IMG/VR virus record: IMGVR_UViG_3300030328_003747
Coordinates: 32,001 to 96,000 of that record
Length of the DNA: 64,000 nt
Direction: 5' to 3' (one strand)
DNA from: a virus
Shown: one piece after another, positions 4,355 through 64,000 of the stretch
Layout: the number at the start of each line of letters is the position of its first letter
How positions within the stretch are numbered: position 1 is the first letter of the stretch
Program-made: the position numbers and the translations under genes
Notes under the pieces: generated by a model
The model's input: only the letters and a program-made list of their open reading frames with translations
What the model was told of the DNA's origin: nothing
The model's database searches: none

Positions 4355-4609
4355 ATGGAATTAAAACACTTAGAAATGCGTTTAGATAGTCTTGAAAAGA
4401 AAATGGAGGAGGTGCATAAGCTGACTTCTATTTTGCCAAGACTTGAAGAAAGAATAATAAGTCAAAAAGATGATCTAGCTGATCATGAAGTAAGACTAAG
4501 AACCCTTGAAGCTTCCCAGTCAAAGGGTAATGTTTATGTTGGATGGCTAGAAAGATTCATTTGGGCTTTAATTGTTGGTGTTGCGGGAGCATTAATCTAT
4601 GTTCTTTAA
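4355..4609 (+). CDS. putative holin / XhlA-like coiled-coil plus C-terminal TM protein
   Basis: Coiled coil then one TM helix; directly upstream of the putative lysin. Confidence 0.55.
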   Translation: MELKHLEMRLDSLEKKMEEVHKLTSILPRLEERIISQKDDLADHEVRLRTLEASQSKGNVYVGWLERFIWALIVGVAGALIYVL

Positions 4610-5024
4610 AAATAATATAAAAGCTTCACTGGAAAGATTCGCATATCTTCCTGATGGAACATTAGGAAAATTAACAGTAAAAGATGAAGTATTTTTTATT
4701 GCGGAGCGACCATGGCGGGGGAATAAAAAAGAAATCAGCTGTATCCCACTAGGAACATATAACTGTAAGGCATATACAAGTAAAAAGTTTGGACAAACAT
4801 TTGAAGTATGTGATGTCCCCGATAGAACTTATATTTTATTCCATGTTGGAAATTTTCCCGAGAAAGATAGTCACGGATGTTTATTAGTTGGCAGTAGTCT
4901 TATGAAGAATCAAACCGCTGTTTCTGCTAGTAAAGTTGCTATGGATAAATTTAGAGAGATTCTAAAAGATGTTGAAAGCTTTGAACTTGAAGTTAAAGAC
5001 ACAACCCCATACGACTGGTCATAA
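4599..5024 (+). CDS. DUF5675-type putative endolysin
   Basis: TLGKL..., SCIPxGTY, VPDRTYILFHVGN...DSHGCLLVG motifs. Confidence 0.7.
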   Translation: MFFKNNIKASLERFAYLPDGTLGKLTVKDEVFFIAERPWRGNKKEISCIPLGTYNCKAYTSKKFGQTFEVCDVPDRTYILFHVGNFPEKDSHGCLLVGSSLMKNQTAVSASKVAMDKFREILKDVESFELEVKDTTPYDWS

Positions 5025-5478
5025 AACTAGATCATGTCGAAACTGCGGGAAAAGAAAACCCATAACCAAATTTGAGATCACAAAGGGCTATAGGCTCAGA
5101 ACTTGCCGAACCTGCCGACAATCGGGGAAAAGAAAAAGAATCAGTCAATGCCCGTATGCGTATATAAACAACCTATACTATCAGCTAAGTCATAGAAGAA
5201 AGCAGACACATGAATTTACTATAAGCAAAGAAGACTTACACAAAGTATATGAGAAGCAAAAGGGACTATGTGCATATACAGGTATCACTATGAGTCATGT
5301 AAAGGATGGCACAGGCAAACATCTAGCAAACATATCGATAGATAGAGTTGATAATAGCAAAGGCTACACTAAGCAAAATATTGCTTTAGTGTGCCTTGCT
5401 ACTAACATGATGAAGTACACTATGAGCTTAAAAGATTTGAAGAAATGGTGTACACTTATATCAAGCTATAAGAGGTAA
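4969..5478 (+). CDS. HNH-type (His-Me) endonuclease with zinc finger
   Basis: CRNC/CRTC; QKGLCAYTG; SIDRVDNSKGYTKQNIALVCLATNMMK. Confidence 0.75.
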   Translation: MLKALNLKLKTQPHTTGHKTRSCRNCGKRKPITKFEITKGYRLRTCRTCRQSGKRKRISQCPYAYINNLYYQLSHRRKQTHEFTISKEDLHKVYEKQKGLCAYTGITMSHVKDGTGKHLANISIDRVDNSKGYTKQNIALVCLATNMMKYTMSLKDLKKWCTLISSYKR

Positions 5479-5483
5479 TAACA

Positions 5484-5894
5484 ATGGCAATCAAAGATAA
5501 GACAATGAAGCAAAGAAAAGCTGAATTTGTTCAGCATTTTCTTGTGACAAAGAACGCAACTGAATCAGCAAAGAGAACTGGATACTCAGAAAAGAGTGCA
5601 TATAATCAAGGGCACAGACTGATGAATGATGATGAAGTCTGCGAAATGCTTGCAAAAGAGTTATCGGAATCAAAAGAACGCAACCTACAAGACCATGACG
5701 ACATCATAGAGCGATTAAAAGAGGAAGCATTAGGAGATGTTCAGGGTCATACCGCAGGCTCCCGTGTAAAGGCTCTAGAGCTTTTAATGAAATACTATCA
5801 GATGATTGACTCAAGTCAGAAGCTTGAACTATCTATGAAGGATTCATGGTTTGATACCCTAGATTTAGAGGAAAAAGCAGATCACCTAAACTAG
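5484..5894 (+). CDS. terS: terminase small subunit (module A)
   Basis: FVQHFL..NATESAKRTGYSEKSAYNQGHRL HTH; RVKALELL; upstream of terL. Confidence 0.85.
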   Translation: MAIKDKTMKQRKAEFVQHFLVTKNATESAKRTGYSEKSAYNQGHRLMNDDEVCEMLAKELSESKERNLQDHDDIIERLKEEALGDVQGHTAGSRVKALELLMKYYQMIDSSQKLELSMKDSWFDTLDLEEKADHLN

Positions 5895-6101
5895 GGGATT
5901 CTTTATTGTAAGTTTTATTTTTTATTTTTTTTCTTTTATTTTCTATAAAATGAGCATAAATCTCATACCCAAACCTCACACGCATATAAGAACCCCGTAC
6001 CGTACAACACGCATGAATAAAGGGGCGGGGGGTGCTGGTCAGGGTACCATCATACACATATATACCCATATCCCCTATGACCTTAAGGGGGGTATGTAAT
6101 T

Positions 6102-62106: not shown

Positions 62107-62211
62107 ATGTCTAAGGTAAAAAATCAAAAGAAAAAGAAGCCAAGTGGATTTATAGCTAAAGGGTGTGGTAAAGTAATGGATAACCGTAGGAAGGTTACAA
62201 CAATAAGGTAA
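62107..62211 (+). CDS. small basic peptide (not in ORF track)
   Basis: ..IAKGCGKVM..RRKVT. Confidence 0.45.
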   Translation: MSKVKNQKKKKPSGFIAKGCGKVMDNRRKVTTIR

Positions 62212-62213
62212 AT

Positions 62214-62396
62214 ATGTATAAAAAATCTAAAAATTCAAGCATGATGAAAAAGTCAAAAGGCGGAAGCATGATGAAAAAATCTAAGGGTGGAAGTATAATG
62301 AAGAAATCCAAAGGTGGAAGCATGATGAAAAAGTCAAAAGGCGGAAGTGTCATGATGGCAGGTAATGCTAATAGAAGAAGAAGTAAATATAAATAG
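62214..62396 (+). CDS. basic repeat protein (MMKKSKGGS)n
   Basis: Four to five 27-bp tandem units with synonymous variation. Confidence 0.7.
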   Translation: MYKKSKNSSMMKKSKGGSMMKKSKGGSIMKKSKGGSMMKKSKGGSVMMAGNANRRRSKYK

Positions 62397-63070
62397 TGCC
62401 GAATTTAATAAGTAATATTCCACATTTTAAATGTTGGATTAGAAAGGAGTTTACACACAATCACGAAAAATATCATGATGAATATATACATGCTTTAGCT
62501 ATAGCAGTTAATACAATTCCTGATAGATCTTTAAGTTTTCAAGTTGTATTTACAGGAGAAGAATCTAATTGTGAAGATAATGATGAACCCAACGTACATG
62601 GTGGCGCTATGTGGGCTAGAATGCCTATTCAAGGTATGGTTGCAGATATTCCAATGGAAGATTTTCCTAAACCTATGGAAGATCATTTAGCACAACCTTG
62701 GGATTGTGAGTCTAGAGATCATTCTGTAGTTGTAATAGATAGAGTTAGCTCATCTCCTTGGTTAGTAAAAATTGAGGGTAATTTTTATCAAGCAAAATAT
62801 TTGTTTACTGTAGACTATACAAACAACAGTATTGCAGATGACCCTGCACAACACAAACAATCTCATGTATTATATATAACAGAGGATTGTAAATGGAAAG
62901 GTAATTTAGTTGCTTTGCCTAACAACAGAGTCCGAGCTACTAGCCCTGCTTTATGGGTTACTGGTGAGGGTGCTCCTGACTTTAAACCGTCGCAATGGGC
63001 ACATTCTGCTGAAGGTCATGAAAGTTATCTAGATCCATCAATTACATTCGATAATTTATATGAAGAATAA
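62396..63070 (+). CDS. conserved phage protein
   Basis: HGGAMWARMPI, QPWDC, YLFTVDY, QHKQSH, ALPNNRVR. Confidence 0.7.
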   Translation: MPNLISNIPHFKCWIRKEFTHNHEKYHDEYIHALAIAVNTIPDRSLSFQVVFTGEESNCEDNDEPNVHGGAMWARMPIQGMVADIPMEDFPKPMEDHLAQPWDCESRDHSVVVIDRVSSSPWLVKIEGNFYQAKYLFTVDYTNNSIADDPAQHKQSHVLYITEDCKWKGNLVALPNNRVRATSPALWVTGEGAPDFKPSQWAHSAEGHESYLDPSITFDNLYEE

Positions 63071-63741
63071 TGGCAGTATCAGGTAGTACAGATTTTACCC
63101 CAGACATAACAGAGTTTATAGAAGAAGCATATGAAAGGTGTGGTCTTGAACTTAGAACTGGATATGACTTAAAAACCGCTATTAGATCAGCTAACTTAAT
63201 GTTATCTGAATGGGCAAATAGAGGGTTAAATCAATGGACAATATCTACAGGAACTCAGACTGTTACAGAAGGAACAAGTAGTTATGCTTTGGGTACTGAT
63301 GTAATTGATGTTCTAGACGTAGTTATTAGGAGAACGGTTAATGATAAAGTAACCGATATAAGGTTAGATAAGCTATCTAGAGCAGAATATTTTAATATCC
63401 CAAATAAATCTACAAAAGCAAAACCGTCTCAATACTTTTTAGATAAACAAACTAATCCAACAATTTATGTTTATCCATCCCCAGAAAATTCTACAGACAT
63501 CATAAGATTTAACAAACTAACAAGACTAGATGATGCTGATGATGCTAAAAACACTATGGATATACCTTTTAGATTTTATCCTTGTTTTGCAGCAGGGTTG
63601 GCCTATTACCTAAGTTTGAAAAAAAATCCTGAACTATCTCCACAATTAAAAGCTATTTATGAAGAAGAATTTCTTAGAGCAGCTGATCAGGACGAAGATA
63701 GAGCTTCATTTAGAGTAAGACCTGGCTTAAGGGGGTACTAA
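63070..63741 (+). CDS. tail tubular / head-tail adaptor protein (module B)
   Basis: IEEAYERCG, RTGYDL, WANRGLN.W, IPNK, DIPFRFYPC..AGLAYY. Confidence 0.75.
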   Translation: MAVSGSTDFTPDITEFIEEAYERCGLELRTGYDLKTAIRSANLMLSEWANRGLNQWTISTGTQTVTEGTSSYALGTDVIDVLDVVIRRTVNDKVTDIRLDKLSRAEYFNIPNKSTKAKPSQYFLDKQTNPTIYVYPSPENSTDIIRFNKLTRLDDADDAKNTMDIPFRFYPCFAAGLAYYLSLKKNPELSPQLKAIYEEEFLRAADQDEDRASFRVRPGLRGY

Positions 63742-64000
63742 TGTCATATGCTAGCGCTAAGTTTGCAGTAGGTTTATGCGATAGATGTGGTTTCAAATAC
63801 AAGTTATTAGAATTAAAAAAAGAGTGGAATGGGTTAAAAGTTTGTTCTGAATGCTACGAACCAAAACATAAACAACTTGAACCATTTACACATGTATCTG
63901 ATCCTGAAGCTATTTATGACCCAAGACCAAATACTGATGTAGAAGCAAATGATGGTAGAGTCTATACACCAACAGATATTATTGGTAGAACTTTTGAAGG
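63741..64000 (+). CDS. zinc-binding virion-associated protein, truncated by window end
   Basis: CDRCGF.Y...EWNGLKVCSECYEPKH. Confidence 0.65.
   Translation, partial: MSYASAKFAVGLCDRCGFKYKLLELKKEWNGLKVCSECYEPKHKQLEPFTHVSDPEAIYDPRPNTDVEANDGRVYTPTDIIGRTFE

Follow-up and report, generated by a model that had tools for sequence, protein, structure and literature searches.

A 105-kb marine viral record with two unrelated head gene sets reads as an assembly chimera of two phage genomes

Two phage genomes probably joined inside a fibre gene by assembly

The viral record IMGVR_UViG_3300030328_003747 (105,083 bp; IMG/VR class ‘linear’, CheckV 100% complete) carries two unrelated sets of head and packaging genes within the 64,000-nt stretch analysed here, record bases 32001–96000, which we call the window. 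We conclude, with a probability of about 0.93, that the record is an assembly chimera of two complete and independent marine phage genomes from one sample, phage A of ~49 kb and phage B of 56.3 kb. Phage A occupies window positions 1–16076 and continues upstream to record base 1, and phage B occupies positions 16682–64000 and extends to the record end (base 105,083), from where it can be closed at 16682 into a circle of 56,325 bp; GC content is even across both parts of the window (0.32–0.38, ~35%). An earlier reading of the window from its sequence alone had described two dissimilar sets of small and large terminase subunits (TerS and TerL), portal and major capsid protein (MCP), and had preferred an assembly chimera to a genuine composite genome. 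Both points stand: PHROG and Pfam scans recover the two sets, an all-against-all blastp comparison of TerS, TerL, portal, scaffold candidate and MCP (E ≤ 1e-4) found no match between set 1 and set 2, and the preference for a chimera is supported by depth, by relatives and by a sister record. Nothing in this analysis indicates that one virion or one replicon carries both capsid sets.

The junction lies where it had been guessed, inside the fibre gene at ~16.0–17.5 kb. The open reading frame (ORF) at 15416–18598 (plus strand, 1,060 aa) has many matches to tail-fibre PHROGs and a Peptidase_S74 chaperone domain at aa 939–991, and it combines a 5′ part from A with a 3′ part from B: its N-terminal 93 aa match A-type relatives only, and residues 385–1060 correspond to the fibre of closed B (97%). 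At window positions 16682–16758 (record 48682–48758, plus strand) the final 77 nt of the record recur without a mismatch, and in a self-comparison the last 89 nt match window positions 16670–16758 at 99%; upstream of the two 77-nt copies 11 of 12 nt are alike, beyond which the sequences are unrelated. Closure at this 77-mer yields the 56,325-bp circle (record 48,682–105,006) with an intact 1,495-aa fibre ORF, and the other 48,681 nt of the record form a lasso tail on that circle. Both record ends and the internal junction fall in fibre ORFs, as the frame at record base 2 is open and fibre-like and an 882-aa ORF starting at record 102436 runs without a stop to the record end. From the 77-nt end-to-internal repeat we infer a k = 77 de Bruijn graph assembler whose path re-entered a node that it had already visited. 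In such a graph, two circular genomes would meet at a shared fibre stretch; the assembler would circle A, cross the shared stretch into B, circle B, and halt on its second encounter with the 77-mer that opens the shared stretch. The ORF at 15416–18598 is therefore best read as a hybrid fibre produced by the assembly crossover. Circularisation of the whole 105-kb contig had been proposed as a further check, and the record does not close as a simple circle, since the likeness of its two ends, which are not collinear, is 86% over just 57 nt and reflects a fibre repeat motif.

An IMG/VR search with the ORF at the record start led to a sister record, IMGVR_UViG_3300030372_004521 (here G011; 91,881 bp, ‘linear’, 100% complete), bases 45,986–91,825 of which are phage A (record 1–48,020) at ~99% identity over 45.8 kb. 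The first 45 kb of G011 (45.3 kb) are a siphovirus with TerL, a phrog_12 portal, a protease, an HK97-type MCP (phrog_10), a tape measure and a distal tail protein, and the MCP of phage B (MCP2) was absent when searched for in this record. G011 repeats its bases 42,617–42,693 exactly in its last 77 nt and bases 45,291–45,385 in its first 95 nt, and the record is a full figure-8 path through a shared fibre stretch of ~2.7 kb. When G011 is closed, phage A becomes a circle of 49,188 bp whose fibre ORF is intact (1,509 aa); over its final 191 aa this ORF agrees (99%) with the open ORF with which the 105,083-bp record begins. The comparison with G011 therefore shows the same phage A glued to two different partners in two assemblies, always in the fibre gene.

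In the fibre genes a unit of ~156 aa (~468 nt) with a conserved motif is repeated, and the genes end in the Peptidase_S74 chaperone domain. The motif recurs at 16464–16502 and 16932–16970, and also at 16194–16227, and several alternative joints in the public runs X1 and X2 coincide with such motifs, which suggests that the number of fibre repeats varies between strains.

Unequal depth and separate occurrence of the two parts

Parts of window 12,500–21,500 are held by 20 public marine runs, of which X1, probably the source run, contains 96% of the words sampled. Four public runs were placed on window 6001–26000, with depth taken as the mean word depth per Logan contig. In X1 the A side stands at 33 (6001–12789) and 28.6 (12760–15823), bins in the fibre overlap stand at 43–45, about the sum of A and B, and the B side stands at 15.9 (17503–18018) and 15.8 (19151–27264), so that the coverage step expected of a chimera by the sequence-only reading is present, from ~29–33 on A to ~16 on B across the fibre. 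The same run contains two alternative contigs, one of which joins 15822 to 16670 (B’s own fibre 5′ part, equivalent to the record end; depth 13.9), while the other joins 18528 to 19132 (A’s own fibre 3′ end, equivalent to the record start; depth 30.3). The flow is thus balanced, with ~30 plus ~14 entering the shared stretch and ~16 plus ~28 leaving it, which fits two populations of unlike abundance that share ~0.8 kb; in this sample the near-identical A/B fibre stretch is indeed ~0.8 kb long (window ~16,682–17,502).

In another sample, run X5, a 13-kb contig matches window 6001–16020 at ~99% identity with a depth of 18.8 and ends at 16020, and the B side is essentially empty, meaning that A occurs there without B. 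Because both the 99% identity to the phage A of G011 and the X5 contig stop at 16,020, and because depth reaches the B level at 17,503, we place the crossover somewhere in window 16,020–17,503, within which the provable graph node is 16,682–16,758. No listed Logan contig spans 16,072–17,503 in one piece, a gap that in itself proves nothing. In runs X2 and X3 coverage of both sides is thin and patchy, and these runs were not used as evidence either way, and a joint of 6137 to 24358 in X1 and X2, with sides of 22 nt, was treated as a short repeat or another organism.

Relatives carry one capsid gene each

Relatives of both capsid proteins are common in marine contigs of IMG/VR, with 422 loci for the MCP of phage A (MCP1) and ~600 for MCP2. 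Among the best 80 loci for each, the longest contigs measure 43–54 kb for MCP1 and 40–55 kb for MCP2, and no relative of either protein lies on a contig longer than 55 kb. The other capsid gene was absent from all ten long relatives examined (40–55 kb; five of MCP1 type searched for MCP2 and five of MCP2 type searched for MCP1), and each type is represented by one complete genome with direct terminal repeats: G005 (52,282 bp, 100% complete) has MCP1 and no MCP2, and G008 (55,002 bp, 100% complete) has MCP2 and no MCP1. Relatives restricted to one module had been named beforehand as a sign of a chimera, and this is the pattern found.

When every ORF of the record was compared with five relative genomes by tblastn, the two parts separated along the same boundary. 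Within record 1–48,681, matches covering at least half of the ORF length were obtained to A-type genomes for 43 of 65 ORFs and to B-type genomes for 2 of 65; within record 48,682–105,083, such matches were obtained to B-type genomes for 42 of 76 ORFs and to A-type genomes for 11 of 76, and 8 of these 11 form one contiguous cassette block (window 26733–32487). Once rotated, the A part shows perfect collinearity with G005, and it is also collinear with G002 and G001, and the B part is collinear with G008 and G006. A division in which A, spanning window 1–41,600, is inserted in B was discarded, as the ORF-by-ORF comparison sets the boundary in the fibre gene.

The record therefore displays the hallmarks of a chimera, namely a k-length copy of the contig end with divergent sequence upstream, parts that are standalone complete genomes, and unequal and separate abundance. 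Concatenated viral contigs are known from short-read de Bruijn assemblies in which repeats shared between genomes collapse, and they likewise show a repeat longer than k, a k-length end copy, a depth difference and parts with one module each. Nothing essential differs here; what is particular to this case is that the repeat is a horizontally shared fibre segment and that A was mis-joined to two partners. The 105-kb record and IMGVR_UViG_3300030372_004521 are both listed as 100% complete and each is really two genomes, and both need to be split before they are used for taxonomy, host prediction, gene-sharing networks or genome-size statistics. Lasso chimeras of this kind can be screened for cheaply by looking for contig ends that recur, exactly and over k letters, at an internal site.

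Alternative explanations

Several observations weigh against a plain chimera of two genomes. No exact k-mer overlap links the record start to any other part of the record, which makes the path a lasso and not a perfect figure-8. The depths given above are per-contig Logan means, not per-base read coverage. Segment 16,077–16,681 has A-like depth in X1 yet lacks a high-identity match in the phage A of G011, so the crossover point is bounded and not fixed. Finally, A and B do exchange genes, including fibre parts, a DUF7936 gene, a curli cassette, an endonuclease and an early gene, and there is a slim chance that rare true A/B recombinants in the fibre gene exist, as minority recombinant or co-integrate molecules from a co-infected SAR11-like cell. 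If so, the contig would have captured a true but non-packageable intermediate that arises as a temperate podovirus and an HTVC023P-type pelagiphage swap modules.

A first alternative is that the chimera is messier than two genomes, with segment 16,077–16,681 or the cassette at 26,733–32,487 derived from a third strain and B not being a single genome. The poor match of that segment to the phage A of G011 speaks for it, as do the several alternative joints of the fibre region in X1 and X2 and the absence of the cassette from both B-type complete relatives, G008 and G006. Against this, the X1 contig that begins at 19,151 continues at B depth (15.8) across the left cassette junction to 27,264, and at the right cassette edge the start of a 157-aa gene (32014–32487) overlaps by 4 nt the stop of a gene for a 153-aa PDDEXK endonuclease (32484–32945), both on the minus strand. 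Because of this spanning contig and the gene overlap the cassette looks native in B, and curli cassettes are known from some HTVC023P-type genomes (PMC9599517). We regard a contribution from a third strain as improbable.

A genuine co-integrate, in which A and B recombined in the shared fibre during co-infection to give a ~105-kb replicon with both head sets that is present as DNA in some cells, is a very unlikely explanation. Homologous recombination is made plausible by the near-identical fibre stretch and the several exchanged modules, and a figure-8 graph alone does not separate two circles from one co-integrate. What counts against it is the roughly two-fold difference in depth between A and B in X1, the presence of A without B in X5, the siphovirus partner of A in G011, and the finding of both capsid genes in none of the ten long relatives. 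The capsids of phages with 49–56-kb genomes would not be expected to package 105 kb, so that such a molecule would be a dead-end intermediate. Site-specific integration of A by its own integrase was also considered and rejected, as both junctions lie in homologous fibre sequence and in G011 A is attached to a different phage at this gene too.

A true dual-virion or composite genome with two alternative capsids, favoured only by the bare fact that both sets lie in line on a single record and by their shared composition and regulatory style, is contradicted by every point raised against a co-integrate, by the complete replication, packaging, tail, fibre and internal-protein sets of each half and by the closure of each half on itself with an intact fibre ORF, and we consider it next to impossible.

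Gene content of phage A

Under the preferred reading, an assembly chimera, phages A and B are each self-sufficient, with their own replication, packaging, tail, fibre and internal-protein sets. The A part of the window (1–16076) contains minus-strand early genes, head set 1, adaptor and tail genes, and the 5′ part of the A fibre gene. TerS (5484–5894, plus strand) matches Pfam Terminase_2 with 65 bits (1.3e-17) and phrog_51 and shares 86% aa identity with G005; TerL (6102–7682, plus strand; phrog_2 and phrog_38407) is 87% identical to G005, and among isolates it comes closest to Roseobacter phage CRP-7 (36%). The portal (7686–9689, plus strand) matches Pfam SU10_portal (9e-23) and phrog_332 (2e-64), is ~31–33% identical to the portals of the roseophages CRP-13, CRP-207 and CRP-212, and also matches records named Puniceispirillum and Pelagibacter phage. 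MCP1 (10846–11709, plus strand; phrog_267, 4e-57; Pfam Phage_capsid_4) is followed by a terminator hairpin at 11721–11738, and the adaptor and tail proteins match phrog_399 and phrog_437. By their position, 9831–10802 and 56402–57319 are the candidate scaffold genes of sets 1 and 2, respectively.

The sequence-only reading had credited the contig with a single replication block and a single set of ejection proteins and had seen no integrase. These impressions do not hold for the whole record, because the window edge had cut off the rest of A. Just upstream of the window, phage A encodes an O-like initiator, a DnaB helicase, Erf and a RecE-like exonuclease; a tyrosine integrase (record 23823–24623, minus strand; phrog_1, 2e-54) lies 7.4 kb upstream of the window and adjoins the Erf and RecE-like recombination genes; and record 7212–23738 encodes an internal virion protein (phrog_511) and a 2,967-aa protein. 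Phage A also has another fibre-like protein besides its fibre. Because its tyrosine integrase sits beside Erf and RecE-like genes, phage A is probably temperate; no candidate attP site was found. The 2,967-aa ORF (record 14835–23738, plus strand) matches only PHROGs of unknown function (phrog_14770 and phrog_616) in its C-terminal third and probably encodes a giant internal or ejected virion protein.

Phage A resembles the CRP-7 and CRP-13/CRP-207-type marine podoviruses in its SU10-type portal and in a genome size of ~50–58 kb, but identity is very low (TerL 36%, portal ~31–33%), too distant for membership, and it differs from them in having an integrase, a module of O-like initiator and DnaB, and a curli cassette. 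No cultured close relative of A was found in the phage collection searched. A megablast search of GenBank phages with both halves returned no match, and thus no close named relative at the DNA level, and a scan of the window and the rest of the record found no tRNA, and with it no tRNA-based clue to an attP site or host.

Gene content of phage B

Downstream of its fibre, phage B encodes four large proteins (493, 249, 594 and 1,074 aa; 19505–26748, plus strand), which from this post-fibre position are candidate internal or ejection proteins and which have homologues in G008 and G006 (29–66%). The 493-aa protein (19505–20986) has weak, short local PHROG matches (~34–80 aa) to tape-measure and endolysin families (E 2e-7 to 8e-4), and the 249-, 594- and 1,074-aa proteins have no PHROG match. 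The minus-strand block at 26733–31509 does not encode replication functions but is a cassette of curli CsgG and CsgF, FecR and CHASE2-cyclase genes, and the replication, recombination and modification genes of B lie at 33147–41102, where PHROGs identify a 707-aa primase-helicase, a Sak4-like protein, an exonuclease and DNA methyltransferases with 54–81% identity to G008 and G006.

TerS of phage B (41670–42287, plus strand) matches Pfam Terminase_2 with 30.4 bits (cut-off 26.1) and phrog_51 (1.7e-12) and is 63–64% identical to G008 and G006. TerL (51406–52866, plus strand; phrog_38, 6e-112) is 59–64% identical to those of 023Pt_psg01 and the Pelagibacter phages HTVC027P and HTVC023P, the portal (53047–55509, plus strand; phrog_1216, 6e-41) is 71–76% identical to G008 and G006, and MCP2 (58405–59313, plus strand; phrog_371, Pfam Phage_capsid_4) is followed by a terminator hairpin at 59328–59351. 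Further tail and virion proteins are present. TerS lies ~9 kb upstream of TerL, and the interval contains small cassettes of early genes together with two large ORFs (512 and 793 aa; 47487–51409) that have no PHROG hit; TerS and TerL are similarly separated in G006, and this wide spacing seems typical of the B type.

Homology of a core gene (TerL) and a 56,325-bp circle, within ~55–61 kb, place B among the HTVC023P-type pelagiphages (HTVC023P, HTVC027P and 023Pt_psg01), the comparison with isolates being of TerL only. Genome size is similar (57.6–60.9 kb against 56.3 kb for B), and the cassette of curli type VIII secretion, FecR and adenylate-cyclase genes found in nine HTVC023P-type genomes is also present in B (PMC9599517). 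At only ~60% TerL identity, B differs from the known phages as a new member of the type, not a known species, and it differs from G008 and G006 in possessing the cassette. Its relatives, its marine source and its GC content of ~35% suggest Pelagibacter (SAR11) as the putative host.

Two small features that had been noted as shared by both halves are confirmed. An early-gene paralogue occurs at window 1272–1441 and 43807–43977 (87% nt identity), and identical hairpins follow both MCP genes (11721–11738 and 59331–59348, 19 nt identical). This MCP terminator is an 18-nt GC-rich hairpin with a TTCG loop, followed by a T-run, and the whole record contains it at only those two sites.

A fibre and curli module shared by three backbones

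The cassette of phage B (26733–32487, minus strand) comprises genes for curli type VIII secretion (CsgF, CsgG and a curlin-like protein), FecR, a CHASE2-adenylate cyclase and the 157-aa protein, with Pfam matches to CHASE2, Guanylate_cyc, FecR, Curlin_rpt, CsgG and CsgF. Phage A has a paralogue of the cassette at record 1117–6626, with 47–95% aa identity to the B copy, and the cassette is also present in G005 and in the siphovirus of G011. The genes shared by A and B at 47–95% aa identity are those for the distal fibre, a 173-aa protein, a DUF7936 protein, the cassette, the 157-aa protein and the endonuclease, and the same gene set is shared with the G011 siphovirus at 44–94%.

Three unrelated, co-occurring backbones, namely a temperate podovirus, an HTVC023P-type podovirus and a siphovirus, thus carry near-identical fibre parts, DUF7936 gene and cassette, a sharing that points to a common host and agrees with the earlier suggestion that the partner of A is a co-occurring phage probably sharing its host. 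A curli, FecR and cyclase cassette in both HTVC023P-type and myovirus pelagiphages has been described as a cross-family multigene transfer (Wittmers et al. 2022, PMC9599517). With copies in a siphovirus and a temperate podovirus, the cassette may have a wider range than was known, and its sharing among three backbones extends the reported transfer (PMC9599517) in a way that is modestly useful and not surprising. The only real biology in this record is this module of fibre and curli cassette common to co-occurring phages, which is largely known already.

The 112-aa DUF7936 protein is encoded downstream of the fibre in all three backbones (window 19134–19472, record 750–1088 and G011 1298–1633; 83–92% aa identity) and may be a fibre accessory or lysis-related protein whose gene moves together with the fibre tip. 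The 173-aa gene sits between the fibre and the DUF7936 gene in both phage B and the G011 siphovirus.

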